A stretch of 64,000 nt of DNA from a virus (IMGVR_UViG_3300044617_002446:1-64000), one strand, 5' to 3'. Counted from the first letter of the stretch, positions 14,525 to 58,734 are shown. The notes: generated by a model not told the origin, from the letters alone. Translations and numbers: made by a program.

Positions 14525-15607
14525 ATGGATATATCAGCTGAGCTTCCAGTAAATAATCTATCATTCGGGAATTGTTCTTATAATATTTTAAAAGAATTTT
14601 TTAAAAAAAATATAAACCTCAGTCTTAATTTTATAGGAGAAAATGCCGATTTATCTGCGTTTGATAAAACACAACAAGATTTCGCCTCCTGGCTGCATTA
14701 TTGTGCTGTAAAGTTTCAAACAAGACACTCAAGGAATAATCCGGTTTTCAAGCTTTGGCATATAAATGGTTCCATGTCGTCAATAGGCAAAGAACAATCT
14801 CTGCTTACTTTTTATGAACTGGACTCCCCAACACAATTTGAAATAAATATACTTAACAATCAAAAAAATGTATTGGTTTCTTCGAATTACACAAAAACAA
14901 TTTTTGACTTGAACGGTGTAAACAATACAAAATATTGCCCACTAGGATTCGATAGTGAAAATTTTTATAAAACCGGAAAAACCTATTCTCCAGATCAAAT
15001 TACGTTTTCTCTAGTTGGCAAATTAGAAAAAAGAAAACAACATCATAAGGTTTTATCTGCTTGGTCAAAAAAGTACGGTGACAATAAAAAATATGCACTG
15101 AATTGCGCAATTCAAAATCCATTCCTTACCCCCGAGCAACAGTCAGGAGCAATTTCTTCTATTTTAAAGAAAAAGTTTTTTAATATAAATTTTCTTGGGT
15201 TTATGCCCACCAATTCAATGTATAACGATTTCCTAAATAGCGCCGATATAGTAATAGGAATGTCAGCGGCTGAGGGATGGGGACTTCCAGAATTTCAAAG
15301 CGTATGTCTTGGTAAGCATGCGGTTATACTTAATGCTCATGCGTATAAAGATTGGGCTAATGAAAAAAATGCTGTTTTAGTGAATCCAATAGGTAAAATT
15401 GACTCACATGACGGCGTATTTTTTTCAAATGGTGGACCATTCAATCAAGGCAAGTACTTTGATTGGGACGAAGATGAGTTTATTGCCGCCTGCGAAGAAG
15501 CTGAAAAGAGATTTATTAATAATAAAAATAATCAAGAAGGTGAAAAATTGAAAGAAATTTTTACTTGGGAAAAAACTACCGATATAATTCTGGATTCTTT
15601 AAAATAA
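14525..15607 (+). CDS. Glycosyltransferase, GT-B fold (GT4-like)
   Basis: PLGFD..VGKLEKRKQ..SAAEGWGLPEFQS..FTWEKT. Confidence 0.88.
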   Translation: MDISAELPVNNLSFGNCSYNILKEFFKKNINLSLNFIGENADLSAFDKTQQDFASWLHYCAVKFQTRHSRNNPVFKLWHINGSMSSIGKEQSLLTFYELDSPTQFEINILNNQKNVLVSSNYTKTIFDLNGVNNTKYCPLGFDSENFYKTGKTYSPDQITFSLVGKLEKRKQHHKVLSAWSKKYGDNKKYALNCAIQNPFLTPEQQSGAISSILKKKFFNINFLGFMPTNSMYNDFLNSADIVIGMSAAEGWGLPEFQSVCLGKHAVILNAHAYKDWANEKNAVLVNPIGKIDSHDGVFFSNGGPFNQGKYFDWDEDEFIAACEEAEKRFINNKNNQEGEKLKEIFTWEKTTDIILDSLK

Positions 15608-15610
15608 TAG

Positions 15611-16015
15611 ATGCCGATTTATATTTTTAAAAATAAAAAAACAGGCGAAACAAAAGAAATTTGCCTTTCGATGAAAGGAAAAATAAGTTTCCCAGAGACT
15701 GAAGGCAATCCTAATGATTGGGAGCGTGTCTATACTATACCAAACATGGGCATCGATACAAAAATAAACCCATATTCATCTAGTGATTTTGTAGAAAAAA
15801 CAAGAAATAAAAAGGGAACAATAGGCGATCTTTTCAATGCAAGTAAAGAATTAAGCGAGGCTAGAGGTGGCACGTCAAGCGACCCAGTGCTTAAAAAATA
15901 TTTTTCCGATTATCAAAAAGAAAAAGGCGTGAAGCATTCGTCTCAAATACAAATAGAAAAAAAAGAAAAAGTAAAAGAAAAAGCTAAAAACCTGGGTATA
16001 AAAGTAAAGGTTTGA
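15611..16015 (+). CDS. FmdB-like protein with a degenerate zinc ribbon
   Basis: MPIYIFKNKKTGETKE..WERVY follows the FmdB MPxYxY pattern but lacks the CxxC pairs. Confidence 0.5.
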   Translation: MPIYIFKNKKTGETKEICLSMKGKISFPETEGNPNDWERVYTIPNMGIDTKINPYSSSDFVEKTRNKKGTIGDLFNASKELSEARGGTSSDPVLKKYFSDYQKEKGVKHSSQIQIEKKEKVKEKAKNLGIKVKV

Positions 16016-20315: not shown

Positions 20316-20567
20316 ATGATTAGATTGAAAATTTCATCAATAGATTTTTCAGAAAAATCGCCAGGAGCTTTAGAAGAAATTAAGATAGAGGGACTTGTTG
20401 GCAAGTCTTTAAATTCATCTATAGATAAAGATGAAATTATAAAAGCCATAAAAGAGGGAGAAGATTTTATTCTATTAACAAATAAAAAACTAATAGAAAA
20501 AGTTTCCGGCCGCTCCGGTAAAAAATCAAATCCATTAATGTTAAATTTTGAAGATTACTCTGAATAA
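20316..20567 (+). CDS. Hypothetical protein
   Basis: Its stop overlaps the next start (TAATG). Confidence 0.65.
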   Translation: MIRLKISSIDFSEKSPGALEEIKIEGLVGKSLNSSIDKDEIIKAIKEGEDFILLTNKKLIEKVSGRSGKKSNPLMLNFEDYSE

Positions 20568-21505
20568 TGAATATTAATATCAGAATGGAGGGAGGTCTTG
20601 GCGATCACCTACTTGCAAATAGATTTGTTCCCGCTATATTAGATAAATATACAGACGCAAAAATTAAAATATTTTCCGACACGGAGAATAATTCAAAAAG
20701 CCTAGAAATGTTGCTGCATTTTTTCCCTTCGTTTTACCAAAGGGGAGGGGAAGTAATAAAAGAGAGAGCAAACAAAAACTATAAAATAATATCACAATTT
20801 GGCGAAGAAATTTACCCAGCCGCAATAGAAAACCAAACGGAATATATCAAAAACAAAATGATAAAAGAATGTGATATTTTTTATGATCTACACATAGACG
20901 GACTTAATTGGGTTAATCACGACTATGACTGGATAAGATATTATTTTCATTTTCCAAAACCAGAAAAAGTTGAAAGTAAAATTAAAAACAAAGATGAAGA
21001 TTTTGTTTTATGTCACCTTTATTCAAGACCAGATTCTATCTATAATGTAGAACAATGGTATGCAGAAACCTTAATAGAAGAAGTTGCAAAATCTATAAAA
21101 GTAAAAATAATTACAGAAAAGCAATATTCTGATTTTTATTTTAAATTAAAAAACAACAAGAATATAGAAATTTTAACACCAGATATTTTTGAAATATTTG
21201 AAATTTCTTCTAAATGTTCTTGTTATATAGGAATAGATTCAGGAATAAGATATATTCCATACCATTTTTCAAAGCCTACATTTGTACTTTCAAATTATTG
21301 CAACAGTATAGGAAACGTAGTTTACTCTCATCTAATAAGATGGCTTATATTTAAAAATCAAACATTACCCATGCATTTTAATGTAAAAAAAACTGCAAAA
21401 ATAATAATAAATTCTATAAACAACAAAGCATCTTATTTATTTCCTGAAATAGAAGAGAATTACGACAACCTTTTAGTAAAAAGAAACTATAAAAATTTTA
21501 TTTAA
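20567..21505 (+). CDS. Glycosyltransferase, GT9-like
   Basis: EGGLGDHLL at the N-terminus; YIGIDSGIRY..KPTFVL. Confidence 0.7.
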   Translation: MNINIRMEGGLGDHLLANRFVPAILDKYTDAKIKIFSDTENNSKSLEMLLHFFPSFYQRGGEVIKERANKNYKIISQFGEEIYPAAIENQTEYIKNKMIKECDIFYDLHIDGLNWVNHDYDWIRYYFHFPKPEKVESKIKNKDEDFVLCHLYSRPDSIYNVEQWYAETLIEEVAKSIKVKIITEKQYSDFYFKLKNNKNIEILTPDIFEIFEISSKCSCYIGIDSGIRYIPYHFSKPTFVLSNYCNSIGNVVYSHLIRWLIFKNQTLPMHFNVKKTAKIIINSINNKASYLFPEIEENYDNLLVKRNYKNFI

Positions 21506-22189
21506 ATGACTACAAAAAAAGACGTAACCATTAACGGAATAGCCACCCAAGAAAAATATTTTGAAAATACTTTAAAAGCAGTAATCTATTCAAAAAAAAT
21601 ATCAGGCATACCAAATGCTCAAATGATTTCTTTCAAAAAGTTTTTTCACGAAGAAGTAAAATGTGTTTATGTTCCAGATTTAATAAAAATTGATTCTGTT
21701 CCAAAGTGGAATTTTTTTCTTATAAAAAACTTATATCAGTTTATAAATACTGATTTTTGTTTAAATGTGCATGACGATGGATTTGCAATCAATGCATCGG
21801 CATGGAAAGATGAATTTTTAAATTATGATTATATAGGGGCATTATGGCCAGTTGGCTGCCATGAACCAATTGTTACAGAAAAAGACAGATGCGGAAACGG
21901 AGGCTTCTCATTAAGAAGTAAAAAACTTTTAGAAATTGCCGCCTTGTACTGTCCAGCATATGCTTATCCAAACGAAGACAGAGTTATTTGTGGGCTACAT
22001 AGAGATATTTTCACCAAAAGAAATATAAAATTTGCACCAGATCACATAGCTGCACAATTTTCAATAGAAGACGAAACAATACCTGAAGCCGCCGGTCAAA
22101 CCCACAAAAATAGGTTTTCTATAAAAAGCTTTGGCTTCCATCAAAAAAATTCAGATGCAATTAAATTTTTAGAAAGCGTTCAAGTATGA
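21506..22189 (+). CDS. DUF5672-family putative glycosyltransferase
   Basis: HDDGF..W..EFLNYDYIGALW..GNGGFSLRSK..NED..FAP..A.QFS..FGFH. Confidence 0.8.
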   Translation: MTTKKDVTINGIATQEKYFENTLKAVIYSKKISGIPNAQMISFKKFFHEEVKCVYVPDLIKIDSVPKWNFFLIKNLYQFINTDFCLNVHDDGFAINASAWKDEFLNYDYIGALWPVGCHEPIVTEKDRCGNGGFSLRSKKLLEIAALYCPAYAYPNEDRVICGLHRDIFTKRNIKFAPDHIAAQFSIEDETIPEAAGQTHKNRFSIKSFGFHQKNSDAIKFLESVQV

Positions 22190-23040
22190 TATTGCTAACT
22201 GGATCAACTGGTTATATAGGTTCTGAGTTTAAAAAGCAGCTTGAAAAAAAAAGTTTGATGCACTGCACAATTTCGCATAAAGAGATCAATAAAAAAAATT
22301 TAAAATCTATTATAAAATATAAAAATATAACACATATAATTAACTGTGCTGCATTTGTTGGCAAGCCCAATATAGAACAATGCGAAAAAGAAAAAGAAAA
22401 AAGCATAAACGGTAACATATTAGTTCCATTTCTTTTGAAAGAAATAGCAGAAGACTTCGACATTACAATGTGCCATATTTCTACTGGGTGCATTTATAAC
22501 GGGTTATCGCCCGATCCTTTGGGATGGAATGAAATGAACGAACCCAATCTTAGTTTCGAATTAAATAATTGTAGCTTTTATACTGGAACAAAATTAAGCG
22601 CAGAAAATATAATTAAAAACTATGAAAAATCATATATATGGAGAATCAGGCTTCCATTTGAAAATAAACATAATCAAAGAAATTATATATCCAAAATAAT
22701 TAATTACGAAAACCTCCTTCTGGAAAAAAATTCTATTTCTCATAAAGAAGAATTTGTCAGCGCATGCATTCAGTCAATAGAATTGAATATTCCATTTGGA
22801 ACATATAATATAACAAATACTGGTTCAATTTCAGCATATGAAATTTTTGAAAAATTAAAAAAAACGATCACCCCAAATAAAGAAGCTAAATTTTTGTCTA
22901 TTGATGATTTTTATAAAAAAGTTAGCAGTATGCCGAGGTCCAATTGTATTCTAGATAACTCAAAAATATTAGCAACCGGAATAAAACTTACAGAAGTAAA
23001 TGAGCAAGTAGATAAATGCATAAAAGAATGGAAATGGTAA
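22186..23040 (+). CDS. RmlD-like NDP-4-keto-6-deoxyhexose reductase/epimerase
   Basis: ILLTGSTGYIG, INCAAFVGKPNI, HISTGCIY, SFYTGTK, RIRLPF. Confidence 0.85.
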   Translation: MILLTGSTGYIGSEFKKQLEKKSLMHCTISHKEINKKNLKSIIKYKNITHIINCAAFVGKPNIEQCEKEKEKSINGNILVPFLLKEIAEDFDITMCHISTGCIYNGLSPDPLGWNEMNEPNLSFELNNCSFYTGTKLSAENIIKNYEKSYIWRIRLPFENKHNQRNYISKIINYENLLLEKNSISHKEEFVSACIQSIELNIPFGTYNITNTGSISAYEIFEKLKKTITPNKEAKFLSIDDFYKKVSSMPRSNCILDNSKILATGIKLTEVNEQVDKCIKEWKW

Positions 23041-23042
23041 AT

Positions 23043-24173: not shown

Positions 24174-24179
24174 AAAAAA

Positions 24180-24743
24180 ATGAAACTTAAAGAAATACTA
24201 GACTCAACAGAACTGTTAAATACGACGCATTTTACAGGAACAGATAAAAATACGACGCATGGATTTATCGATTTTTTTTATGAAAGAGAATTTGAAAAGT
24301 ATAAAGATAAAAAAATCTCTCTACTAGAGATAGGTATGGAGGTTGGCGGCTCTATATATTTATGGGGTAAATATTTTCAAAACGGAGAAATAACAGGGGT
24401 TGATGTTGAAGATAAAATTCATGAAAGATGGAAATCTTTACCAAATACAAAATTTATAATAAATGACGCATATGAAATTGCGTTTATAGAAACGCTTCCG
24501 AACTTTGATATTATTATTGATGACGGACCACATACGCTAGATTCACAAATTCTTTGCATAGAGAGATATTTGCCAAAGTTAAAAGAAGGCGGAATTATGG
24601 TTATAGAAGATGTACAGGACGCAAGCCACTTAGAAATCTTAAAAAAACATACACCAGTAGAGCTACAAAATAAAACCGAGATGATAGATCTTAGATTTTC
24701 TAAGGGAAGATATGATGATCTACTATTTGTAATTAGAAAATAA
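24180..24743 (+). CDS. Class I SAM methyltransferase (sugar O-methyltransferase-like)
   Basis: GTDK..H..Y..LLEIG..GGS..W..YF..FDIIIDDGPH..LKEGGIMVIED. Confidence 0.8.
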   Translation: MKLKEILDSTELLNTTHFTGTDKNTTHGFIDFFYEREFEKYKDKKISLLEIGMEVGGSIYLWGKYFQNGEITGVDVEDKIHERWKSLPNTKFIINDAYEIAFIETLPNFDIIIDDGPHTLDSQILCIERYLPKLKEGGIMVIEDVQDASHLEILKKHTPVELQNKTEMIDLRFSKGRYDDLLFVIRK

Positions 24744-38256: not shown

Positions 38257-38626
38257 TATACAAACAGAAGTATCGGCTGGAGAGCTTCTAGATAAAATAT
38301 CTATTCTTGAAATAAAGCAAGAAAAAATAAATGATTTTAAAAAACTTCAAGAAATACAAAAAGAGCTTTTCATTTTAAGAAAAACATCTCTTCTTTTAGA
38401 AGGCTCAGATACCTGGATTAAAAAAATTAAAGAAGTAAATAGCAGGCTTTGGAAAATAGAAGATGATATTCGCGACAAAGAAAGAAAAAAAGAATTCGAT
38501 CAAGAGTTTATTGAAATGGCAAGATCTGTTTATTTCACAAACGATCAAAGGTTTAATATAAAAAACGAAATAAATATATATTATAAATCAAATATATTAG
38601 AACAAAAAAATCACGAAAAATACTAA
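38249..38626 (+). CDS. DUF6165-family protein
   Basis: VSAGELLDKISILEIK..VNSRLWKIEDDIR..FIEMARSVYFTNDQR..IK..IN..S.I.E.K. Confidence 0.8.
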   Translation: MINIQTEVSAGELLDKISILEIKQEKINDFKKLQEIQKELFILRKTSLLLEGSDTWIKKIKEVNSRLWKIEDDIRDKERKKEFDQEFIEMARSVYFTNDQRFNIKNEINIYYKSNILEQKNHEKY

Positions 38627-38633: not shown

Positions 38634-39863
38634 ATGCATATATTAGAACAATATTCATTAAACTGCGGGCTAAAAATAGGAAAACCTTTTATATATAAAA
38701 AATTTTATCCTCTGCCTTTTGATAAATATATAACATTTAATCCTTTTGGTAAATTTAACTCTAGGAAATATTCTTACTGGCAGGATGTAGTAGACATTCT
38801 TCACCCTGTATTATCTGATCATAATATTAAAATTATCCAACTTGGTGGAAAAGATGAACCAAATTATACGGGCTGCTATAATGCAGCAGGTATTACTAAT
38901 TTGAACCAATCCGCATATATAATTAGCAATAGTCTTTTGCATTTTGGCGTAGATAGTTTTCCCGTTCACGCAGCTTCAGCTTTTGATAAAAAAATAGTTG
39001 CACTTTACTGCAACATGTATGCATCTCAATCGAAACCATATTGGTCAAAAGAGGAAGACGTATCATTAATACAGGCGGATTTAAAAGGAAAAAAACCTTC
39101 ATATGCACCAGAAGAAAATCCAAAAACAATTGACTCAATAAAGCCAGAACTTATAGCAAATGAAATACTTAAAAAGCTTGAAATAAAAAATAAAGTAGAA
39201 CAAAACTCGATTTTTTTTGGAGAAAATTACCCGAATCTAGAACTAGACTTTATTCCAGATTCAAGTATTCTTATAGATAAAGGAATTAATCAAACATTAA
39301 ACGTTAGGTTTGATTTATTAGACAAGCCAGCTTCAGATGAACAAATAAATATCGCCGTAGTTAACATACAAAAAAGAAAATGCAGGATTTATTTATCTGA
39401 TATAATACCAGTAGATTTTTTAAAACATCCAGAACTTAGAAAAAATACAGAGAGTATTATTTTTAAAATAAAAGACTATTCAGTCGAAACAAAAAAGTTT
39501 ATTTCCAAATTGAAATCCATAGGGGGTAATATTAAATATATTGCGTGCAGCAAAACATTCAATACCGAAGAAAAATTTTCATTATTAAAACTTGAAATGT
39601 TGGATTATTGTCTTGTAGAAAAAGAGCAATTAAAACCAATTGAAAACGAAATCAAAAAACAAATTTTGAAAAATAAAAATTCATTGACTTTTTATAAAAG
39701 TTGTAGGATAATATACTCAAAAGGTGAAAGCTTTATTAGTGAAGCCGCCCTAAAAGAGAAAAAATCAACTACATCATTCGTACAAAAAATCAAAGACATT
39801 AAAAACATAGATCTACTTCTTGAAAAAGATCATAGTAATATTTATATTTTTAATAAAAAATAA
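38634..39863 (+). CDS. GT9 C-terminal-half glycosyltransferase plus an unknown domain
   Basis: YITF..SRKYSYWQDV..IIQLGG..TNLNQSAYII..HFGVDSFPVHAASAFDKKIVALY..IKPELI. Confidence 0.78.
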   Translation: MHILEQYSLNCGLKIGKPFIYKKFYPLPFDKYITFNPFGKFNSRKYSYWQDVVDILHPVLSDHNIKIIQLGGKDEPNYTGCYNAAGITNLNQSAYIISNSLLHFGVDSFPVHAASAFDKKIVALYCNMYASQSKPYWSKEEDVSLIQADLKGKKPSYAPEENPKTIDSIKPELIANEILKKLEIKNKVEQNSIFFGENYPNLELDFIPDSSILIDKGINQTLNVRFDLLDKPASDEQINIAVVNIQKRKCRIYLSDIIPVDFLKHPELRKNTESIIFKIKDYSVETKKFISKLKSIGGNIKYIACSKTFNTEEKFSLLKLEMLDYCLVEKEQLKPIENEIKKQILKNKNSLTFYKSCRIIYSKGESFISEAALKEKKSTTSFVQKIKDIKNIDLLLEKDHSNIYIFNKK

Positions 39864-39864
39864 A

Positions 39865-48337: not shown

Positions 48338-51300
48338 TCATACAGACAGACATTCCACAAACTCATATTCTACTTTTATACTTAAGTCGTAACTTCCATC
48401 TGCTATTTCGGGGCAGTCTTCATACCAATATTCTCCATCTCCTTTATATATAGTATTTCCCAATGAACTCGAGCCGCCCTTGCATGGATTTGGGGTATTT
48501 GGAAAAGCGGGATTTTCTGATGGACATGATGTTGTAATATTTCCATTTACATTGCCCTGTATTATGCTGTCAATTGGTGTGGTACGATTATAGGTGTTGT
48601 GTGGACCTGGATTACTTATAGTTAAATTACAGGTACTTGTACAACTTGGATTTCCTGCTTTATTACATTTTATTGAAAGTAATTTTATACAATCCTTATT
48701 ACCATTTTCATCATCATCATCATCATCGTCATCATCACCTTCATCACAACATAGTATTTTTTTCTCCGGCATAGATCCAGGAGGCACTCCCGGTGGAAGA
48801 GGACACGTTTTTTGCACCAATATACCACCCTTGCTACCAGGACCAATCACATTACACCTTGCTCCAACTTGGTAGTCGCCATAAGAAAAACTATCTGGCA
48901 AACCAAAATCAGAACAAAAACAACGCTTTTCTGTACCTTGGCAGCAACAAAATTGAGCTTGTTGATATCCAGTATAATTTTCGCCATATTTCTCTTTACA
49001 TGAAGCAGTACAATCATTACTTAAAGGAGCAGTTTTACCTCCATCACATTTTGCTTCACAACAATAATAACATTTTTTACCTGGTGAATCGGGACAATCC
49101 GTTTCAATAGGATCCTCTTCTCCCAAGCAATATTGTCCACCAAATGGAGGTCCATCTAAACACGAACCTACCAATCTACAGCCCTGCCTACCAGGAGACT
49201 CGCATTCAGTATTTTCACATGGCAAACATTCATCTTTAGCACATGCCTTGTGGCAGCGACATTTTTTAACACCTCTTCCATTTGGACACGGGTAAACTGA
49301 TTTTTCAACATATCCTGTCCAATTATCAGTTGCACAGCATGAAGATTCAATAATTTCCTCCTGAATAGGCTCACCACCACATTGCCAAAACGTAGCTCGA
49401 ATTCCACCTATTATATCTTTACCATTTGCTAATCGTGTTTTACAGCTTTCATCAGTAAAAGCAGACTCTTCTCTCCTTTTATAAACAGTAAAATGACCAT
49501 CTTTACCTTCGGGACCACCAATATATACTCTTTCAGGTTCAATTGTAAAACCAAGACTCACACTAGATTGTTTTATTGTAGCAAAACATTCTTCGCATTT
49601 AGACTGGTTTCCTCCATTAACTAAGGTTTTAATAGTACAATCTGCAAGTATTTCAAAATTAGTACAATCACTATTATTTATACTACAACTCAAATCAAAT
49701 TTCTGTTTACATGCTGGAGTTCTATTTGTTTTTGGATCTAATCTACCTGTACCTATACTGTAAGTTCCATCGGGTCCAGTTTCAAAAGGACTGTCTACAG
49801 GAAGCAAGGGTCCTTGTTCTGGTCCAGATTCTGGTCCTGGCCCTGGTCCTGGCCCTGGTCCCGACCCAGATTCTGGCTCTGGTCCGTATCTTGGATCTAA
49901 TGGTCCCTGAGCAAGAGGGGGCGGAGGTGGCGGTGGAGAAGTATTTTTACAAATATCACCAATGCATCTTGTATCATCACCCTTGTAAACACCATTTAAA
50001 AAGCCACATTGTTCTGAAGTTGTTTCTATACAATTTAAAAAAACTCCAGATACATCAAATCTACAACACACACCAACAGCAACAGGATTTTCAGTTGGCG
50101 CACAACCGTTTGGCTCCCTAATATCATCATCGCTTATAATAAAATTAGCAGAAGATATACCAAATTGTAAAGATTCATATGGCACTAGTGTATTTAAGGT
50201 TAAATTAAATCCTTCAAATTTTTCTAAGTCACCCTCGTCTTCTAGAATTTGCCCGAGTCTTATGCTTTGTCTTGTTTTAGGTATTATAAAAGGAAGCTCT
50301 GTATAATAACCACTTGGCAAAATTTCATTTGATTCAAAATGATCACCAAATAAAGGATCCGGCTTCCATTTACTATAAGTTATTAATCCCGTTAAATCAT
50401 AATCCGTAAAACCAGTTCTATTAATAGTATAACCAACTGATCTTTGCTCTTCGCAACCCGTATATCTATTTAGTGAAAAAGATAAAAAAGAATCAGGCTT
50501 TGGTGGACAAAAACCGTTTATAGCTATACTGCCGTCCCAGCAAATATCAGGCCTGGGTGGAAGAGTGATATCTCCATATTTTATTTTTAATAAATAGTTG
50601 CCAGAAGCAAGCTGTTGACTAAACGAAAAAACATTTCCTGTGGTATTATATGGACCAGCGCGTAACGCATTTATTTTTTCGTTAACTTTGTAAAAATCCT
50701 GACAGTCAAAAAATTGAATTTGACCTTTCGAGCTACCAGAAAGATCATTTTTCATATAATTTAAACCTCGAAAAGCAACAGCGAATTCGGCACCAAACGA
50801 ATATTGATACGAATAACCTTCATATAAATTATTGAGAGCACCAGTACATCCAGCACCACTACAAACTCCTGTTATTAAAATGTGATCAGGTTTTAATTTA
50901 TAAAATCCAGAAACACCATAAAAAGGATAATCATTTCCAGGTAGATTATTAAAATATACTCTTTTAAAAGGCGCTCCAAAAATATCTGTCGCATAACCTA
51001 AATCACAATTAAAAGCTTCATAAAAGTCATTTCTTAATTCATATTTTTCCTCAACCCCAGAAGCTATACCAATATATTGATAAATACCCCCGTCGTTTAA
51101 ATAATTAAAAAATATACCAGAAAAAATACCAGAAAAACCTGTATTTGCATTTTCAGCATAATTATAAAAACCAGAATATAGTCCGCTAGTTTTTCCTACA
51201 CATCCAGAACCTTCGCAAAAATAATTGTAATCATAAGTTTCATTATAGGGTATATATGCACCAATATATAAATCATATAAAGTTCCAGAACTTGTATATA

Positions 51301-53950
51301 CAACCCCGTTGTTAATATATCCATTAATAGGAATTTTATTCACACCGAAAGCTTTTTCACCATAGAAAAAAGCATTTTTTTCACCATATTGCCCATTCAC
51401 CCAAAAATCAAAAATACCAGTAGATGCTAAAGAAAATCTATTTGTAGTTATTCCCGTAAAGCTGCCTGTAAAAAATTTATCATAAGGAGCACATCCCTTT
51501 ATACCTGTAAATTGAAAAGAATAAAAACCTATACCAGTACAACCAACCCCAGTGCAAATTGAATTATAAATCGACCCATCAAAAACCTTAGGATCTAATA
51601 TTTTCGATTCAGAGTTGTTATTATTTACCCCAAAAGGGTAAGCATAAAATGTTTCTTCTTCAAAACTTGCATCATCATTGTATTGTTTACAATAATAATT
51701 TAATTTATATAAATCAAATAAAACCGCCACATTAGCTTTGTCTATTTTTATTTTAAAATCACCTTTAGAAAAAAAACAAGGTTCTTCATTTATAGAAAAA
51801 TTTATTTCACTTTTATCAAAATAATCATCAAAAAAAAGATCTCCACTTAAATTAAAGTTATTTAATTGCGCAGGGGGTAAACTAGATTCAAAATTTCCAA
51901 CAAGATATTCCCGCCAGCCTTCTTGACTTGATTTCTCATCTAAACTAGAAATACCACTTTTAAATTTTGCAAATTCTTCATTTAAAGAAGAGTAATAAGA
52001 TCGAACTGGATTATAAAAAGAACCAGAACCACTTTGCGAAGGATTCATACGAGAAATTCTTACTCTGCCTCCAGAGGGAGTGCTTTCTCCCATGTTCAAA
52101 GTTGAAATTAAATTACCTGACAAATCATAAAAATCTATATTCCCTAAAAAATCACCAGATTTTTTTAAAAAATCAGAATTATTTGCATACTCTTCAAACT
52201 GATTAACAGGCTCTAATCCAGTTATTATATACGGAAGGTAAACCTTTAAATTGTTTTGGTTATAATAAACATCATTTTCTGGTGTTTCAGAAATTTTAAG
52301 CTCAAACTCAGGAATAGGATCGCAAGGATCCCATGATAAATCTAAAGTTCTTTCAATAGGCTGGATAAATCCAAGCAAATTAATTTTTTTATCAGCACTT
52401 CCGTCTGTAGGTTTAAAAGAAAGTATATCAGGGGCGCCTTCTTCCTTTTGCATCAAATACCCACTTAAAACTTTCTTTATTGTTATATAACCAGGTTCAA
52501 GATATGACATATTCCCAACCCAAATTCCAGTTGTTGATGAACCAGTTGCAAGAACAAAACCTGGTCTATTATTAAAATTGATTGTAAAAAACCCAGTTCC
52601 ATAGGAGAAAGGACTTAAAAAAGAAAATTCTTCTAGTTCTTTTTCAGTATATTCCCCAGTTAATTTAAAACCAGTAGCTGGAACAGTATAAAGATAAGAG
52701 GCTCCTGATTCAGAAACACCTGTCGATATATAGCCACTTACAGTCTTACCAAAAAAATCAACACCAGATACAGCCCCTTCTATTCCTGTTACCAGTATAG
52801 ATGGATTCAATCTAGAAATTGTACCAGAAATATTAATCTCTTTGTAACCCGAACCAAAAACATTTTTTAATATTAGTCCTGTTCCTAAAGCAGGTATCTC
52901 AACCTCAATAAAATCATTTACAAATCCTGTAGCAATAAAATTATTAAAATATACAATACCAGATCCGGTTCCGTATTCAAACCCACTAAGTAAGTTATTA
53001 AATCCAGAAACAATTCCAGTTTTATACCCAGATAACAATCCAATTCCACTTACAAATCCAGAAACAAATTGACCGGTTAATTCTCTTGTTCTTTCAATAT
53101 CTAAATAAACAGATCCAGTATAACCACTTATATATTCAAATTGAACAGACAGATCAGAACCACTGGTATTTAAATAATATGAAGTATATTTATTTGTTTC
53201 TCCTGCAGATATATTTCCTTCGTTTGGTGAAATTAAAATATAAAATGTTTGCACGGATAAAGGTGAGCCAACTGCATTGAACGAATAAGAAAAATCACCA
53301 AAATCAGTATAAAAATTCACAGGAAACGAATAGTTTCCATTAATTTGATTAAGAATATCTATTTCAAATGTTTTTTCTGAAAATGGAAGAATAATAGATG
53401 GAAATTGACCACTAGAAAAAGAAAAATTTAAATCAGATATATCTCCTGAGAATATATTTATTGAATGCGGATTTTGATTTTTAAGCACCAAATTCAATGG
53501 AACATTAACTCCTTCAATATAACTTCCTGATCTAGAATAAGCTTTTTCAGAATCAGATTCAGTATCTTTATAACCAGAAGGCTGCTCGCCATTAATAAAA
53601 AAATCCAAATTTGAAATTCCGCTTACAGAATTAAAATACAAATAAGAATAGTTATTGGAAAACTTATCTTGACCAATATAAACAGGAATTCCGTCAACAA
53701 AAAAATCATTAAATTGAGAATTTATATTTCCAGATAAAAATAAATTTTTTTCACTATAAAATGAACCAATATATTGATTTTTATAATCAAATATTTTTCC
53801 ATTTTCCAAAGTCCAATTAATCTTTCCAGAAACTCCAGAAAAACCAAAATCAAACTTGGAAGTATTTTGATCAACAATTATATTTGCAGACCAAGTAAAG
53901 TCACCAGTTTGGTTATAAATTTTTCTTTTTGTAAATCCGCTTATTTGCAT
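48338..53950 (-). CDS. Giant S/T-G-rich virion protein with a Calx-beta-like domain, Pro/Gly linker and Cys-rich C-terminus
   Basis: Dense S/T-G dipeptides; FLSFS..E..VGYTINRTG..ILEDEGDLEKFEGFNLTL..ANFIISDDD is Calx-beta-like; PPPPPP..GPGPGPGP linker; dozens of Cys in the last ~580 aa. Confidence 0.7.
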   Translation of the reverse strand: MQISGFTKRKIYNQTGDFTWSANIIVDQNTSKFDFGFSGVSGKINWTLENGKIFDYKNQYIGSFYSEKNLFLSGNINSQFNDFFVDGIPVYIGQDKFSNNYSYLYFNSVSGISNLDFFINGEQPSGYKDTESDSEKAYSRSGSYIEGVNVPLNLVLKNQNPHSINIFSGDISDLNFSFSSGQFPSIILPFSEKTFEIDILNQINGNYSFPVNFYTDFGDFSYSFNAVGSPLSVQTFYILISPNEGNISAGETNKYTSYYLNTSGSDLSVQFEYISGYTGSVYLDIERTRELTGQFVSGFVSGIGLLSGYKTGIVSGFNNLLSGFEYGTGSGIVYFNNFIATGFVNDFIEVEIPALGTGLILKNVFGSGYKEINISGTISRLNPSILVTGIEGAVSGVDFFGKTVSGYISTGVSESGASYLYTVPATGFKLTGEYTEKELEEFSFLSPFSYGTGFFTINFNNRPGFVLATGSSTTGIWVGNMSYLEPGYITIKKVLSGYLMQKEEGAPDILSFKPTDGSADKKINLLGFIQPIERTLDLSWDPCDPIPEFELKISETPENDVYYNQNNLKVYLPYIITGLEPVNQFEEYANNSDFLKKSGDFLGNIDFYDLSGNLISTLNMGESTPSGGRVRISRMNPSQSGSGSFYNPVRSYYSSLNEEFAKFKSGISSLDEKSSQEGWREYLVGNFESSLPPAQLNNFNLSGDLFFDDYFDKSEINFSINEEPCFFSKGDFKIKIDKANVAVLFDLYKLNYYCKQYNDDASFEEETFYAYPFGVNNNNSESKILDPKVFDGSIYNSICTGVGCTGIGFYSFQFTGIKGCAPYDKFFTGSFTGITTNRFSLASTGIFDFWVNGQYGEKNAFFYGEKAFGVNKIPINGYINNGVVYTSSGTLYDLYIGAYIPYNETYDYNYFCEGSGCVGKTSGLYSGFYNYAENANTGFSGIFSGIFFNYLNDGGIYQYIGIASGVEEKYELRNDFYEAFNCDLGYATDIFGAPFKRVYFNNLPGNDYPFYGVSGFYKLKPDHILITGVCSGAGCTGALNNLYEGYSYQYSFGAEFAVAFRGLNYMKNDLSGSSKGQIQFFDCQDFYKVNEKINALRAGPYNTTGNVFSFSQQLASGNYLLKIKYGDITLPPRPDICWDGSIAINGFCPPKPDSFLSFSLNRYTGCEEQRSVGYTINRTGFTDYDLTGLITYSKWKPDPLFGDHFESNEILPSGYYTELPFIIPKTRQSIRLGQILEDEGDLEKFEGFNLTLNTLVPYESLQFGISSANFIISDDDIREPNGCAPTENPVAVGVCCRFDVSGVFLNCIETTSEQCGFLNGVYKGDDTRCIGDICKNTSPPPPPPPLAQGPLDPRYGPEPESGSGPGPGPGPGPESGPEQGPLLPVDSPFETGPDGTYSIGTGRLDPKTNRTPACKQKFDLSCSINNSDCTNFEILADCTIKTLVNGGNQSKCEECFATIKQSSVSLGFTIEPERVYIGGPEGKDGHFTVYKRREESAFTDESCKTRLANGKDIIGGIRATFWQCGGEPIQEEIIESSCCATDNWTGYVEKSVYPCPNGRGVKKCRCHKACAKDECLPCENTECESPGRQGCRLVGSCLDGPPFGGQYCLGEEDPIETDCPDSPGKKCYYCCEAKCDGGKTAPLSNDCTASCKEKYGENYTGYQQAQFCCCQGTEKRCFCSDFGLPDSFSYGDYQVGARCNVIGPGSKGGILVQKTCPLPPGVPPGSMPEKKILCCDEGDDDDDDDDDENGNKDCIKLLSIKCNKAGNPSCTSTCNLTISNPGPHNTYNRTTPIDSIIQGNVNGNITTSCPSENPAFPNTPNPCKGGSSSLGNTIYKGDGEYWYEDCPEIADGSYDLSIKVEYEFVECLSV
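48708..48737. repeat. (TCA)n trinucleotide run encoding poly-Asp
   Basis: About 10 TCA/TCG units encoding DDDDDDDDE on the minus strand. Confidence 0.85.
49818..49885. repeat. Hexamer repeats (CTGGTC/CTGGCC) encoding a Gly-Pro linker
   Basis: Encodes GPEPESGSGPGPGPGPGPESGP. Confidence 0.8.
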
Positions 53951-53956: not shown

Positions 53957-56860
53957 TTAATTGGTTGGAAGAGTTAACGGCCTATAAGAAGAATTTATAT
54001 TTCCACCTACAGATGATGTATACAATCTATAAGAAAGCCCTTCGATCATTTTATTTATTAAATTGGCTTCCGGTATGGCTCTATATTTAGTTGATAATGT
54101 ATAAGATGTTTTCGGTCCATCTTCTCCTATTGTTATACTTATGTTATCTAAACCTTCTTCAAAAGAATATCTTTTTGGCATTATTCCAAATAAAGTAAAA
54201 TTTGCACTTTTTTTATTTTGGGTATTAGAATATTTTAAATAACTATAAGCCGCTGCGTGCGCCTTTTGAATTTGCTGCATATTTGGAACACATGCACCAG
54301 GTTTTAATTCTTTTTCTATTTGAGAGAGTTCATTAAAATAATAATCATGCTTCATTGCATCAGCTGGAATGTCGCCCGCAATTGGAACTTGATGCTTTGG
54401 AATAAAAACCGGCACGTCATAAGTTTGCCTAAGTCTTACTTTATAAAAGTCTTTATTTTGCCCCCCAGAAGAACCAATATTGCTTGATCCACCGTCTAAC
54501 AATGATTTTTTTGGTTGAGCCATAAGTTTTCTAAATTTCGCTGTTTCTTCTTGCATTTTTTCTGCTAGACTTCTTTTTACATCTTCCTTATCTTTAAAGA
54601 AACAACCACCAACTGGCATCATAAATCCGAAGCCATCAAACGTAACCCATCTACAATTGTCAGAAGTTAACCCAGATGCCCCAAGAACCATTTTTTTCTC
54701 GTATGGACTTTTTGTATCTCTACTATCCCTCAACAAAGTTTTTCTAACATTTTTCATTTGCTTTGTTTCGTAAAAGTTATTTATTTGAGTTTTTGTTATT
54801 GGAAACTCTCTGCCATTCCTCGCATTACGGACGCAATATATTCTTATATTTTTATTATTTTTTGCACATGGATATAATCTAACAAGTATATCTGGTCTTC
54901 CTTCTGGACCAACAAGCCAAAGACCAAAATTATTTGCAAGATAGTCTACTTGAGAAGAGTATTCATTTATTTGACTAGAATGAGGGTACCATTTTGAATC
55001 TCTTTCTGCAATTACTAAATTTGATTTAACTTTATATTCTTTTTGTATTTGCCCATCTTCTTGTTCTACAGTAAATGTCGAATCTTCTGCATTTGAATCA
55101 TCATCATCTTTAACTTCTGTAATAAGTTTATCTATATAAGACCCTGGTTCATGACCAAAACCGCAAACCGGATGACCAGGAATACCCGCGCCACTAGATA
55201 AAAATTCAGCAGATGCATCAGGAGATTCAATTGATACATTGGGCGCATTTTCTTCTCCAGCTGGAACAATAGGAGAATATTTTCTATACCAAAACCTACC
55301 CATAAAATTATTTGCTATTGAAGACTCTCTATCGAACTGAGATTGTAAAGTTTCCAAACTATTTTCAACCACCAAAAAATAGTACGAAGAAGTTCCGCCG
55401 GTCTTTTTTTGATCTTCTAAAATTGCTTTTTTTCTTTCGTCGCCCATTTGATTCAAAATTGAATTCCATCCAGCATCATTAGCTCCCTCATTTTTTGTTG
55501 GAGCTATAACATCAATAATACGCATATTACCAAGTTCTTTTAATACATTTGGATCTTCTTCATCTTTTTTATTACCCGTAGTGGAAGCACCCAAACCAGG
55601 TCCAGCTGTACCTCCACCGGCTAAACTATTATCTTTTGGAGCAGTTCTTGGTTTTGAAGGATTTTCGCTACAGTCAAATGCCACCTTCTTGCTTACCGCA
55701 TCTTTTACGCTAAGTATTTTGTAAGCATTATAAAACCAAAACACTTCTCTTAAATTATTACTATAGTAACTTAAAGCAATCGAAATTTCTTTATCTTCAA
55801 GATATTTTTCTTTATCTCCAGAGGAAGATTTCAAAGAGCCGCCAAGACTACTTTTATTTTTAGATAATCCTGCTCCATCTTTCATATCCCCACCAAATAA
55901 ATCGGTTATATAAAATGGAGTTAAAGTAATTATTCTATCGTCTTCACAAGTGTATGATTGCTTTATTCCTTCTCTACCATAATAAGATATTACACCGCGT
56001 GATGATGTATCCTCACAAGAAATTGTTTCGGAATATTCTGATAAATTTTCATAACTACTAGAATCAATATTAAAATTTGCACCAGATTTTAAATCAACAA
56101 AAACCAAAGAATCCTTTTCAAAATCCCAATAAAAAGTAAAACCAAAATCAGAACACCAGCTTTGCAAAACACTTCTTAATGATCCTGTATAATCTCTTGG
56201 CAATTTTTTTAAGAAATCGCCAGACGGTTTATTATTTGCAGTAACCGGCAACTTTGATAAAAGCTCATCAAATGTATATTTAACTTCATAAATACTATTG
56301 CCGTCTTCTTCATTAACGCAAGATAAGCCATATTTATCAGGTGGAGCAAATGGGCAAGGGTCGCACCAATCAACTTTTATTTGATTTTCATTTAAATCAA
56401 CAGTAGAATCGAAATCTGTATCGCATGGATGATATTCTTTCCCAACTATAATTAAATTTTTAGCAAAAGAACCAGGTCTAGATGGCGCCGAATATTTATT
56501 GAATCCAGTTCTAATTCTATTATACCCATGTCTTTTATGTAACCCAACATACCACTGATCTAATTTAAAACTATTATCAATATATTTAACCTCTAAAGTA
56601 GAAAGCTCAGGACTAACATTTTTTGTATATGAAACAAGCGCCCCTTTAAAATTTACACCGCCACCAATTCTAACAGAAGACGAATTTCCAACGGGCGAAA
56701 TAGTAGGAAGACTATATCTCCCGGTTTCATTCACTATACTTAAAGTCAAAGAGCTGGGTTGTTCTGGTCCACCAACCTCACATGATAAATTGTAAACACG
56801 ACCACCAAACATTGACGTGCCAACAACAGAATCAGAATTTATTTTTATTACCTTTGACAT
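53957..56860 (-). CDS. Putative baseplate hub/tail protein
   Basis: Downstream of the tape measure gene; SLTLSIVNE, LEVKYID, SLRSVLQSWCSDFGFTFYWD and C-terminal ISITIGEDGPKTSYT fit hub-type folds. Confidence 0.55.
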   Translation of the reverse strand: MSKVIKINSDSVVGTSMFGGRVYNLSCEVGGPEQPSSLTLSIVNETGRYSLPTISPVGNSSSVRIGGGVNFKGALVSYTKNVSPELSTLEVKYIDNSFKLDQWYVGLHKRHGYNRIRTGFNKYSAPSRPGSFAKNLIIVGKEYHPCDTDFDSTVDLNENQIKVDWCDPCPFAPPDKYGLSCVNEEDGNSIYEVKYTFDELLSKLPVTANNKPSGDFLKKLPRDYTGSLRSVLQSWCSDFGFTFYWDFEKDSLVFVDLKSGANFNIDSSSYENLSEYSETISCEDTSSRGVISYYGREGIKQSYTCEDDRIITLTPFYITDLFGGDMKDGAGLSKNKSSLGGSLKSSSGDKEKYLEDKEISIALSYYSNNLREVFWFYNAYKILSVKDAVSKKVAFDCSENPSKPRTAPKDNSLAGGGTAGPGLGASTTGNKKDEEDPNVLKELGNMRIIDVIAPTKNEGANDAGWNSILNQMGDERKKAILEDQKKTGGTSSYYFLVVENSLETLQSQFDRESSIANNFMGRFWYRKYSPIVPAGEENAPNVSIESPDASAEFLSSGAGIPGHPVCGFGHEPGSYIDKLITEVKDDDDSNAEDSTFTVEQEDGQIQKEYKVKSNLVIAERDSKWYPHSSQINEYSSQVDYLANNFGLWLVGPEGRPDILVRLYPCAKNNKNIRIYCVRNARNGREFPITKTQINNFYETKQMKNVRKTLLRDSRDTKSPYEKKMVLGASGLTSDNCRWVTFDGFGFMMPVGGCFFKDKEDVKRSLAEKMQEETAKFRKLMAQPKKSLLDGGSSNIGSSGGQNKDFYKVRLRQTYDVPVFIPKHQVPIAGDIPADAMKHDYYFNELSQIEKELKPGACVPNMQQIQKAHAAAYSYLKYSNTQNKKSANFTLFGIMPKRYSFEEGLDNISITIGEDGPKTSYTLSTKYRAIPEANLINKMIEGLSYRLYTSSVGGNINSSYRPLTLPTN

Positions 56861-56895
56861 TTCCTTTTATCCTTTAATTATACCATTTTTTTGAA

Positions 56896-58734
56896 TTAAT
56901 TTTCAAAAAAAGAACCATTATTGTTATATAATACACTTTTCTGCGATGAAAAACTTCCGTTTTTAACAAAAAGATCATTACTTGACGATTCAAAATAATC
57001 TATATTTTTATCAAGTTTAACTCCGTTTAAAAAACACGACAAAGAACTTTCTTTATACTTTCCGCCAAGCAAATCTATATTAAAAAATCCAGAATAAGAA
57101 TTAAATTCTTTTCTTTTTGTTTTTATATTTTTAACAATAGATAAAGTACCAGAAACGCCTTCAAATAAAGAAATATAATTATTAAAAAATAAATTGTTAT
57201 TAATTACATATATATAATTTTCATTAATTAAATTAAAAATACCAGTATTTAATTTCTGCCCATTAAAAAATACCAAATTATTTGTACCAGAACAAATAAA
57301 CCTATTACCTGTTCCAGATACGTGGCTGAAATTATCAATAATTTCGATTTCAGAAAAGTCTAAATATTCAACGTATGCCTCATCACCAAGGGAGTATCCG
57401 CCAGTAGAATAAATAAATTTTCCCGACGTAAAATAGTCGCGCTCAAGAACAATCTTTTGATCATAAAAATCTCCAGAATAATATCCAGATCCACTGTTTT
57501 GCATTATACCATTTAAATAAAAAACGAAATTTGAATTTGTATTATTTAGAAAAAACCCTAAATTTATTCTATCCAAAGATGGATAATAACTTTGTGAATT
57601 TGCAAAAGTATTTAAAAATTCACCAGTATTGCTTTCATATGTCCAAGAAAAAACATTTCCTGTATCTAAATTATATACGCTTACGCCTTTAGACATTCCA
57701 AAAGAACTATAATAAGATTCGTCAAAAACTAATTCTGTAGAAAGACCCGTAAATATAGGATAAACTACTTCACCACTTATCGGAACCTGAATAATGCCGC
57801 TTTCTATATAATAAATCGGTTCCTCTGTATATCCTGTATATTTATTGCCAAATTCATCCTCAACCAATCCAGTTGGATTTATTGTGTATCCAGTAATGCC
57901 GCTTGATATACCAGTATATATTGAATTGTATCCTGTTATTTCATAGCCTGTTACATACCCAGAAATAAAACCCGATGTCACCGGTTCATAAATAAAACCA
58001 CTTGCTAAAAGCGAAGAATTAAATTGGTCAACCGGTTCAGAAAAAAACAAAAACTCATCTAAGTAGCCACTAAAATTTTTATTATAAAAATTATTTGAAT
58101 TACCAGTAATACCACCAATGTTCCAACTTTTGGATCCGGTTAAAATAGGCGCCTCAAGAAAAAAATCTTTGGAAACAACACCCTGAGAAAAAAAGTTTTG
58201 TTTTCCAAGTGATAAATTTCCATTTGAATATGAAACAAATAAACAATTATTTTCCCCGAGAGGTTCATCTAAAACGTAAGAATACAAATTATTATCACTT
58301 CTATTTTCAAAATACAATCTATTTGCATCATTTATTCCGAATGAAAAACCTTTATATATTGTTGCATTTTTATAAAAATCTTTTTCAATATTGGAAAATA
58401 TAACACCTTTTCCACTAGCGACAAAAGAAAAACCAAATCCATTAAACTCATAATCAAATCCAGAACCAAAATTATTAACCTGCAATATTCTAGATCCTGT
58501 AAAAAAACCGTATCCAGATTTATGAAAAAATCCAGATCCACCAGGGGGAACAAAAGAAAAAGAAGAACCCGAAATAACTTTTAAATAAAAATCTTCATAT
58601 TCAGAATACGGCGAGGAATTTGGCACATTCAATCCGGCATCCAGTCCATTAAATCTATAATGCAAAATATAATTCCCTGTATTTAGAGAACTAAAATTTT
58701 CTAAAAAATATAATGTTCCTGTTTTTGCAGACAT
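56896..58734 (-). CDS. S/T-G-rich virion protein with a LamG/concanavalin-like domain
   Basis: LHYRF..FSFGINDANRLYF..WNIGG..FSGYLDEFLFFS; repeated VFxLNG motifs near the C-terminus. Confidence 0.65.
   Translation of the reverse strand: MSAKTGTLYFLENFSSLNTGNYILHYRFNGLDAGLNVPNSSPYSEYEDFYLKVISGSSFSFVPPGGSGFFHKSGYGFFTGSRILQVNNFGSGFDYEFNGFGFSFVASGKGVIFSNIEKDFYKNATIYKGFSFGINDANRLYFENRSDNNLYSYVLDEPLGENNCLFVSYSNGNLSLGKQNFFSQGVVSKDFFLEAPILTGSKSWNIGGITGNSNNFYNKNFSGYLDEFLFFSEPVDQFNSSLLASGFIYEPVTSGFISGYVTGYEITGYNSIYTGISSGITGYTINPTGLVEDEFGNKYTGYTEEPIYYIESGIIQVPISGEVVYPIFTGLSTELVFDESYYSSFGMSKGVSVYNLDTGNVFSWTYESNTGEFLNTFANSQSYYPSLDRINLGFFLNNTNSNFVFYLNGIMQNSGSGYYSGDFYDQKIVLERDYFTSGKFIYSTGGYSLGDEAYVEYLDFSEIEIIDNFSHVSGTGNRFICSGTNNLVFFNGQKLNTGIFNLINENYIYVINNNLFFNNYISLFEGVSGTLSIVKNIKTKRKEFNSYSGFFNIDLLGGKYKESSLSCFLNGVKLDKNIDYFESSSNDLFVKNGSFSSQKSVLYNNNGSFFEN

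Follow-up and report, generated by a model that had tools for sequence, protein, structure and literature searches.

The locus and its Ser/Thr-Gly-rich proteins

The viral sequence IMGVR_UViG_3300044617_002446 is a single contig of 81,323 bp from an uncultured lake phage, tailed and low in GC. We analyzed its first 64 kb (positions 1 to 64000, hereafter the window), and we describe here two features of the region from 14525 to 58734: a marked excess of Ser-Gly and Thr-Gly dipeptides ([S/T]-G) in large tail proteins, and a set of nucleotide-sugar and glycosyltransferase (GT) genes that might act on those proteins. IMG/VR classes the contig as linear and CheckV puts it at 54% completeness; complete relatives of the lineage measure 140 to 167 kb, and GC content ranges from 27 to 38% across the window. 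The plus strand from ~12.9 to 40.6 kb is a nucleotide/replication module that encodes the small and large subunits of ribonucleotide reductase (RNR), a dUTPase, a dNMP-kinase-like protein, a RecA-like protein, DnaB, a primase, a PD-(D/E)XK nuclease, a PHP protein, and a DnaE-type polymerase. From 40.6 kb on, the minus strand carries large genes downstream of a tape measure protein of 3111 amino acids (aa). Because they follow the tape measure, which is the usual order in tailed phages, these are likely tail-tip, baseplate, and fiber genes.

For 49 open reading frames (ORFs) of the window, the observed number of [ST]G dipeptides was compared with that expected from composition (observed/expected, O/E), and a z score was obtained by shuffling. 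The tail proteins concerned and their comparators, all on the minus strand, are as follows.

3946..11160, minus strand: 2404-aa protein with 11 TIG/IPT domains; 70 [ST]G, 43.1 expected, z 4.7
42333..47282, minus strand: 1649-aa tail fiber-like protein with RCC1 repeats; 86 [ST]G, 28.3 expected, z 12.5
48338..53950, minus strand: 1870-aa tail protein; 78 [ST]G, 31.3 expected, z 10.0
53957..56860, minus strand: 967-aa conserved tail protein between two biased ones, used as internal comparator; 11 [ST]G, 12.1 expected
56896..58734, minus strand: 612-aa tail-tip protein; 37 [ST]G, 12.0 expected, O/E 3.09, z 9.2
58738..62014, minus strand: two proteins of 541 and 549 aa that immediately follow the tape measure; no enrichment in this phage
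62015..64000, minus strand: C-terminal part of the 3111-aa tape measure protein (genome 62015-71350; PHROG 4211, E 4.9e-47); not enriched, z 1.9

A z score of at least 4 is reached by 4 of the 49 ORFs only, namely, the 612-, 1649-, 1870-, and 2404-aa proteins. In each of the first three, TG and SG are the two strongest outliers among all 400 dipeptides, and about half of the glycines follow Ser or Thr (54% in the 612-aa protein, 52% in the 1649-aa protein, and 51% in residues 1 to 1290 of the 1870-aa protein). The corresponding share is 8 to 25% in the 967-, 541-, and 549-aa proteins, the tape measure, DnaE, and a 673-aa transferase described below. A preliminary description of this DNA had counted by hand about 37 SG and TG dipeptides in the 612-aa protein, quoting residues 252 to 283 as an example, and about 6 in its 541-aa neighbor. 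Exact counts bear out both figures (20 SG plus 17 TG in the former; 6, with 5.8 expected, in the latter), and the O/E calculation that it had called for shows the bias to be real. Its extension of the same bias to three further proteins holds for those of 1649 and 1870 aa and breaks down for the 2404-aa protein, where the signal is weak and of a different kind (SG 1.9-fold, TG 1.24-fold, with AG and GG raised as well); this TIG protein probably lies outside the phenomenon.

The bias is confined to parts of the proteins and of the genome. It is absent from the Cys-rich C-terminal 580 aa of the 1870-aa protein, which contain 50 Cys and in which 12% of glycines follow Ser or Thr. This domain (residues ~1291 to 1870; 48338-50080, minus strand) is preceded by a poly-Pro/(PG)n linker and has a run of nine Asp inside. 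Upstream of the tape measure, proteins have z scores of at most 2.4, with the exception of a 173-aa protein outside the window (genome 79621-80142, minus strand; L001:17621-18142) that has 14 [ST]G, with 4.4 expected, and in which 74% of glycines follow Ser or Thr. This small protein carries two NPSG[YF]I motifs, and a 636-aa relative in the related genome G014 is biased too (z 6.3); it is probably another fiber component.

The sites typically lie in the context hydrophobic-[S/T]-G-hydrophobic, with hydrophobic residues at 52% of -1 and 51% of +2 positions against a background of 37%. Acidic residues are no regular part of this context. Asp or Glu occurs within 3 residues of 12 of the 37 sites in the 612-aa protein, 33 of 86 in the 1649-aa protein, and 33 of 78 in the 1870-aa protein, and at every position from -4 to +5 of 2294 sites these residues fall outside the seven commonest. 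The analogy with acidic Ser-Gly attachment sites of eukaryotic proteoglycans, drawn in the preliminary description, is accordingly not borne out. The 1649-aa protein does have one acidic linker, containing DGSGDG, and the sequence EDEDDEEQDGSGDG occurs in it near residue 1100.

Several simple causes of the bias could be dismissed. The codon hexamers that encode the sites are diverse and follow general codon usage, which rules out a cause at the DNA level and implies selection on the protein. Pooled over 60 homologues of the 612-aa protein, TG is raised 3.47-fold and SG 2.44-fold, while NG (0.86), DG (0.66), AG (0.65), and GG (0.41) are depleted, so a generic preference for Gly turns does not account for the excess. 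Nor does generic fiber composition: 16 baseplate, fiber, sheath, portal, and capsid proteins of phage T4 have O/E values of 0.57 to 2.34 and z scores of at most 2.1. Common ancestry of the 612-, 1649-, and 1870-aa proteins is undetectable, with no BLAST cross-hits among them and an hhalign probability of 1.2%.

Conservation of the bias in relatives

Word searches recovered 60 homologues of the 612-aa protein, all of them enriched (O/E 1.92 to 4.32). A profile search of the family gave 761 matches at E ≤ 0.001, from the best 150 of which we drew a further 137 representatives of clusters at 50% identity; these are likewise enriched without exception (O/E 1.67 to 4.72, median 3.0). Within this sample, then, the bias is found in 197 of 197 family members, and no member without it was encountered. 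The alignment has 28 conserved Gly columns, and in 19 of them Gly is preceded by Ser or Thr in at least 75% of the sequences. Ser and Thr exchange freely in those columns, and Ala, Asn, and Asp are rare. Site positions are kept down to ~25% identity, with Gly more conserved than the Ser or Thr before it. There are also three invariant or near-invariant Asn-Gly columns (N408-G409, N491-G492, and N570-G571).

Twenty related IMG/VR loci share the gene order tape measure - 549 - 541 - 612-like - 967-like - 1870-like. A 612-like ORF is recognizable in 17 of them and has a z score of at least 5.3 in all 17; in two others, L017 and L019, the ORF at the 612-like place has z scores of 3.4 and 3.2. The 1870-like ORFs reach at least 5.1 in 15 of 15 cases, and the 967-like ORFs stay at or below 0.7 in 16 of 16. 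The low pooled O/E of the 967-like proteins (0.72) might suggest active avoidance of the motif, but it is uninformative, as values between 0.19 and 1.79 occur among ordinary enzymes of these phages. In a complete relative of 140.5 kb, G014, a z score of 4 or more is reached by 5 of the 75 ORFs that are 200 aa or longer, two of these 5 in the tail-tip module and three elsewhere.

Sugar and glycosyltransferase genes

The plus-strand module contains the following genes with actual or possible roles in glycan synthesis.

14525..15607, plus strand: 360-aa GT-B (GT4-like) glycosyltransferase; PHROG 2170 "glycosyltransferase," E 6e-14; Pfam GT1 below cut-off
20567..21505, plus strand: 312-aa protein encoded at the start of the sugar block; GT9-like by ESM Atlas alone, a lead
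21506..22189, plus strand: 227-aa DUF5672 protein, 53.8 bits; no assigned function
22186..23040, plus strand: RmlD-like nucleoside diphosphate (NDP)-4-keto-6-deoxyhexose reductase; RmlD_sub_bind, 70.7 bits
23016..24173, plus strand: NDP-hexose C-methyltransferase; PF08484 (Methyltransf_14) C-terminal domain, 77.4 bits, plus an S-adenosylmethionine (SAM) domain
24180..24743, plus strand: small SAM methyltransferase; Methyltransf_24, 32.2 bits
24747..25778, plus strand: Gmd, GDP-mannose 4,6-dehydratase; PF16363, 353.2 bits over the full profile; TIGR01472, 330.7 bits (below the equivalog cut-off of 415)
36235..38256, plus strand: 673-aa GT4-like glycosyltransferase with DUF4214; PHROG 2170, E 3e-13; Pfam GT1 below cut-off
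38228..38626, plus strand: DUF6165 protein between two transferases; profile match
38634..39863, plus strand: 409-aa protein with the C-terminal Rossmann half of GT9 (heptosyltransferase family); PF01075, 31.3 bits, cut-off 22

The profile scores uphold Gmd, the RmlD-like reductase, the C-methyltransferase, and the small methyltransferase as named in the preliminary description (353, 70.7, 77.4, and 32.2 bits). The reductase and tailoring enzymes are encoded in genes adjacent to Gmd (22186-24743), and the product of this block may be a C-methylated and possibly O-methylated 6-deoxyhexose derived from GDP-mannose. The five glycosyltransferase-type genes listed there fared unevenly: those at 14525 and 36235 belong to PHROG 2170 and that at 38634 has half a GT9 domain, while the gene at 20567 lacks a family match and that at 21506 encodes a DUF5672 protein. 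For the 312-aa product of the 20567 gene, searches of Pfam, PHROGs, NCBIfam, and PDB sequences gave no family match; its lead in the ESM Atlas is a feature score of 0.97 to a viral cluster in which 81% of members have PF01075 (TM score 0.70).

The GT9 signal is weak and split over two genes, with a stretch weakly resembling the N-terminal half in the 673-aa protein and the C-terminal half in the 409-aa protein. The C terminus of the former weakly matches positions 1 to 54 of TIGR02195 (heptosyltransferase II; E 0.003). The latter covers positions 135 to 230 only of the 247 in PF01075, and it has a weak PDB match to residues 233 to 339 of 1psw_A (E 0.038). PDB sequence searches with the 312-, 227-, 673-, and 409-aa proteins gave nothing significant.

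Co-occurrence of the bias and the transferases

The TRANSFERASES link was examined through 20 tail-related records and 80 GT-centered loci. Among the tail-related records, Gmd is present in 15 of 20 and the adjacent pair of 673-aa and 409-aa transferase genes in 16 of 20. The three complete genomes have both, and the records that lack either are without exception fragments, 30 to 60% complete. A biased relative lacking the transferases, which the preliminary description had named as evidence against its proposal, was thus not found among these records.

A search with the 673-aa transferase reached at least 532 IMG/VR loci. In the best 80 of these (L035-L114; 51 to 73% identity), the 409-aa partner is adjacent in 79 and DnaE adjoins in 70. 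At 58 of the GT-centered loci the sequence extends 9 kb or more downstream, and 38 of these 58 have one or more ORFs (≥300 aa) with a z score of 4 or more. The biased ORFs beside the pair in these 38 loci are encoded mainly on the convergent strand, and for most of them BLAST finds no homologue in the lake phage genome. The bias accompanies the GT pair over a very wide set of contigs and sequence-diverse tail genes, within one lineage.

Two further observations concern the 673-aa transferase itself. The copies in the best 80 loci (51 to 73% identity) are closer to it than are six orthologues from the tail loci (38 to 45%), and the copy in L035, which lies in the same record as L002, has 73% identity. 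In G002, G005, G015, and G016, the matches to residues 325 to 672 are reported to include one TAA or TAG, which may be the end of the gene itself, a split, or a read-through.

Predicted structure of the biased proteins

We modeled the 612-aa protein with AlphaFold2 (AF2) from 41 aligned homologues, with a mean predicted local distance difference test score (pLDDT) of 80.7 and a predicted template modeling score (pTM) of 0.74. Residues 12 to 248 form a lectin-like jelly roll, whose best structural match is carbohydrate-binding domain 4 of the arabinanase AbnA (5hon_B; Z 17.2, root mean square deviation 2.7, 187 residues); a cyanophage tailspike (Z 16.0) and CBM40 modules (Z ~14) follow. Residues 249 to 337 are predicted to form one very long beta-hairpin, and the rest of the protein consists of beta-sandwiches. 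Strand interiors hold 14 of the 37 sites, and 12 of these 14 belong to the hairpin; loops account for 11 more, strand edges for 9, and helix ends for 3. Across 41 family members, [ST]G enrichment is 2.59-fold in the jelly roll, 3.30-fold in the hairpin, and 3.14-fold in the C-terminal sandwiches, and 79% of the glycines in the hairpin follow Ser or Thr. At residues 254 to 264, alternate positions place S, F, S, Y, T, and Y on one face and G, I, G, V, G, and E on the other.

The spacing of sites shows a modest excess at 3, 6, and 7 residues and no single period. The preliminary description had allowed that the sites might be buried turns of a beta-solenoid. That possibility did not come true, at least as far as the model goes: no solenoid or beta-helix appears in it, and a fixed-period repeat is ruled out. 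Residues 1 to 560 of the 1870-aa protein gave a poor AF2 model (pLDDT 46.9), with residues 227 to 538 below 50.

Possible explanations of the bias

One explanation is that [S/T]-G is an O-glycosylation sequon for the phage's own transferases. Gmd would make GDP-4-keto-6-deoxymannose, and the C-methyltransferase, the RmlD-like 4-reductase, and the small methyltransferase would, by their family assignments, convert this product to a branched, methylated 6-deoxyhexose. Several soluble GT-B transferases, including the conserved adjacent 673-aa/409-aa pair, would then act on tail proteins, O-glycosylating tail-tip and fiber proteins at [S/T]-G acceptor sites in the cytoplasm before or during tail assembly. 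The outcome would be a dense glycan coat on the outermost tail parts, with a role in shielding, stability, or host-surface interaction. This proposal fits the data because the requirement for Ser or Thr is strict with free exchange between the two, because the bias spans unrelated proteins and folds, and because it is absent from T4; the composition of the sugar kit likewise speaks for it. It survived every in silico test run. On this sequence evidence we regard it as plausible, if unproven, with a probability that falls somewhat short of even.

Several observations weigh against the sequon proposal. The positions are strongly conserved and flanked by hydrophobic residues, as expected of structural residues, and the 12 hairpin sites are spaced every 3 to 7 residues inside strands; if the model is right, such dense in-strand sites are typical of structural residues and would be sterically awkward for dense glycosylation. 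Since every family member examined is biased, the bias cannot be told apart from a requirement of the fold. No relative was found that has the bias or the transferases without the other, in either direction, and the 20 tail-related records and 80 GT-centered loci all share one replication module, so that the co-occurrence counts as one trait of one lineage and offers no independent contrast. The sugar and GT genes are all found on the plus strand within the nucleotide/replication module, anchored to DnaE and not to the tail genes; early or middle expression of these genes is plausible. Further, the GT pair is convergent to the tail genes, and 20 of the 58 loci with full flanks have no biased ORF after the pair, mostly with a different, co-directional module in its place. 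Adjacency to the tail genes is therefore not a functional link. The acceptor claim of the preliminary description thus stands in that the bias is strong and Ser/Thr-specific and the transferases co-occur with it; it is weakened by the missing acidic context, the restriction to a single lineage, and the placement of the sugar genes in the replication module.

An equal rival is that [S/T]-G serves the fiber proteins of this lineage in structure, assembly, or ligand binding, while the unrelated sugar genes remodel host envelope glycans; this, too, we place somewhat below an even chance. In a more specific form of the same standing, [S/T]-G-aromatic-aliphatic would put Ser/Thr and Tyr/Phe on one face of a hairpin and Gly and Ile/Val on the other, as the parity of residues 254 to 264 suggests. 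Such a two-face hairpin would suit the tight packing of an intertwined fiber or a carbohydrate-binding face, and the pattern may loosely resemble the T-G-W of cell wall- and choline-binding repeats. The hydrophobic flanks, the persistence of site positions to ~25% identity with Gly as the most conserved residue, the location of 14 of 37 sites within predicted strands and 9 at strand edges, and the presence of the bias in all 197 family members, as a fold requirement predicts, all agree with a structural role. So does the lectin-like N-terminal domain (5hon_B, Z 17.2; CBM40, Z ~14), and the [ST]G-rich part of the 1870-aa protein appears unfoldable as a monomer, which is usual for intertwined fibers. 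However, a turn or bulge motif should accept Asn or Asp before Gly, yet NG and DG are depleted; the bias occurs in mutually nonhomologous proteins and in three fold types, with no periodicity; and the fibers and baseplate of T4 lack it. As for the sugar genes, their position in the DnaE-anchored replication module agrees with a role apart from the tail. Lytic aquatic phages carry Gmd and transferases, along with other lipopolysaccharide (LPS) genes, that are proposed to alter the host cell surface (PMC5332604), and by this analogy host-surface modification would be the main alternative role. Against it, a Wzx flippase (PF01943), a Wzy polymerase/O-antigen ligase (PF04932), and an initiating phosphoglycosyl transferase (PF02397) each had no match in any of 5 records, of which three are complete genomes; such functions could come from the host, and remodeling of envelope glycans with host-supplied machinery is possible.

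The remaining explanations are far less probable. That the transferases glycosylate phage DNA through hypermodified bases, with the [S/T]-G bias unrelated, seems very unlikely to us. The GT pair and sugar block do lie among the RNR, dUTPase, dNMP-kinase-like, DnaB, primase, and DnaE genes, and phage GT-B enzymes can put heptose and other sugars on 5-hydroxymethylcytosine, according to extracts of a preprint (bioRxiv 10.1101/2023.12.21.572611). But known sugar hypermodifications of DNA begin with enzymes that provide the acceptor hydroxyl on the base (PMC13326640; 10.1101/2023.12.21.572611), and such enzymes are missing here: a thymidylate synthase homologue (PF00303) and a C5-DNA methyltransferase (PF00145) were each found in 0 of 5 records, including three complete genomes. 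Tet_JBP (PF12851) was also found in 0 of 5, although its positive control matched nowhere. In the same extracts of the preprint, GT contigs without a neighboring 5mYOX or ThyS gene are held to be less likely to act in DNA hypermodification, and GDP-6-deoxyhexoses do not figure among the DNA sugars described (10.1101/2023.12.21.572611). The DNA alternative is weak because the first enzymes of the known routes were not found in the five records, and this bears equally on the sugars on DNA that the preliminary description had raised as a counter-reading. Scarcely more probable, taken jointly, are a signature of chemical stability and one of another modification. In the former, exposed Gly turns of long-lived tail parts would avoid deamidation-prone Asn-Gly and isomerization-prone Asp-Gly. 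Asn-Gly is chemically labile, NG, DG, and GG are depleted as SG and TG are raised, and 11 of the 37 sites lie in loops with 9 more at strand edges; yet three Asn-Gly columns (N408-G409, N491-G492, and N570-G571) are kept in the same proteins, and the 967-, 541-, and 549-aa proteins, the tape measure, and T4 virion proteins show no such replacement. In the latter, S/T-G would mark, for example, phosphorylation or acylation, but no candidate kinase or acyltransferase was found, the one weak match being sulfotransferase-like.

Returning to the sequon proposal, its specificity for Ser and Thr, its spread over folds and unrelated proteins, and the makeup of the sugar kit favor it at the level of sequence. 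A broader form is that, in an aquatic phage lineage of at least 532 loci, an S/T-G code directs a split GT4/GT9 pair that hyperglycosylates the outer tail with a phage-made branched, methylated 6-deoxyhexose, and that the sequon is kept when fiber genes are replaced. This broader form we hold more tentatively than the sequon as such, and we think it rather more likely to be wrong than right.

Comparison with known glycosylation systems

A close parallel is with the bacterial autotransporter heptosyltransferases (BAHT; TibC/TibA and Aah/AIDA-I), in which a soluble GT-B enzyme resembling the GT9 member WaaC hyperglycosylates Ser residues of a beta-rich surface adhesin in the cytoplasm (PMC4358343). 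The phage likewise has GT9-type sequence in three genes, together with beta-rich, adhesin-like tail proteins that have many Ser/Thr sites. Its GT9 signal, however, is weak and split over two genes; its sugar pathway starts from GDP-mannose, whereas the BAHT donor is ADP-heptose; and the candidates are tail proteins without a beta-helix in the AF2 model, unlike the beta-helical autotransporter passenger that serves as the BAHT substrate. Further features of BAHT are an iron finger of four Cys, a dodecameric assembly, and the use of ADP-heptose.

In mycobacteriophages, glycans are reported at the C termini of capsid and tail-tube subunits (as cited in PMC12619734). Phage-encoded glycosyltransferases are present in both cases (PHROG 2170 and PF01075 here), and in the mycobacteriophages they are reported to decorate virion proteins. 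The candidate sites here run along whole tail-tip and fiber proteins, with hundreds per protein set, rather than at C termini, and the lake phage encodes its own nucleotide-sugar pathway. Among eukaryotic viruses, PBCV-1 Vp54 and mimivirus fibrils are glycosylated by virus-encoded enzymes, with nonstandard sequons (NTXT and NIPG) in PBCV-1, and these viruses share with the phage their own Gmd, nucleotide-sugar enzymes, methyltransferases, and GTs in clusters (excerpts of PMC9614988). The PBCV-1 linkage is N-linked, the sequences are unrelated, and the S/T-G motif is not described in those excerpts (PMC9614988).

The LPS and capsule gene sets of aquatic phages have Gmd and transferases in common with the lake phage, but that interpretation is silent on virion proteins and leaves the [S/T]-G bias unexplained. 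Clusters that depend on a lipid carrier, such as those for O-antigen or capsule and the PglL type, differ in having a flippase, a polymerase, ligase, or oligosaccharyltransferase, and an initiating transferase; PF01943, PF04932, and PF02397 were each found in 0 of 5 records here. Eukaryotic proteoglycan xylosylation differs in the acidic flanks of its Ser-Gly sites, which the phage sites do not share. Among titles and abstract openings, we found no literature report of an S/T-G bias in phage tails, of O-glycosylated tail fibers, or of a split phage heptosyltransferase pair.

We found virion glycosylation in tailed phages documented only for mycobacteriophages, with few C-terminal sites (as cited in PMC12619734). 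If the sequon proposal is true, the receptor-binding apparatus would carry hundreds of acceptor sites that can be recognized in the sequence itself. The tail fibers of uncultured phages would then have to be interpreted differently, with consequences for their mass, antigenicity, stability, and recognition of the host. The phage would also offer a new system for O-glycosylating proteins, whose minimal acceptor motif might be useful in glyco-engineering, and the Gmd and GT genes that are common in aquatic phages, and so far without explanation, would gain a function. Should the motif be purely structural, it would represent an undescribed building principle of fibers, in which half of the glycines follow a hydroxyl residue across different folds. 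Under either reading, the bias provides a strong signal in the sequence that is easy to test.

Other features of the contig

No tRNA genes were found in the window, and a comparison with 50,697 deposited phage records turned up no close relative (27% identity at best for DnaE). A PHROGs search with seven large tail proteins gave zero matches. In the 967-aa protein, a Cys/Pro cluster with the consensus ...HPCDKN...DPCDPCPFMPPDKY..SCDP is invariant in 8 orthologues of 27 to 63% identity and may, from its composition, be a metal site in a tail hub-like protein.

The 277-aa gene at 39820-40653 (plus strand) is kept after the GT pair in related loci and belongs to a virus-only hypothetical family in the ESM Atlas. 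We did not count it as part of the sugar system; its leads are weak and point to single-strand-annealing proteins. Outside the window, the genome encodes a 461-aa DUF285 (BspA-like repeat) protein (78264-79649, minus strand; E 1e-26) and a 188-aa protein (80262-80828, plus strand) with two weak sulfotransferase matches (E 6e-4 and 5e-3), both below the cut-off.

The hexamer GTGTAW stands 15 to 17 nt upstream of the start codon in 5 of 59 genes examined, where roughly 0.1 would be expected by chance. These genes lie at 104-955, 11201-12211, 19235-19645, and 42333-47282 in the window and at 77054-77614 in the genome. The set includes the 1649-aa tail gene (42333-47282) and the gene at 19235, which heads the plus-strand run into the sugar block; GTGTAW is possibly a regulatory signal shared by tail and sugar genes.

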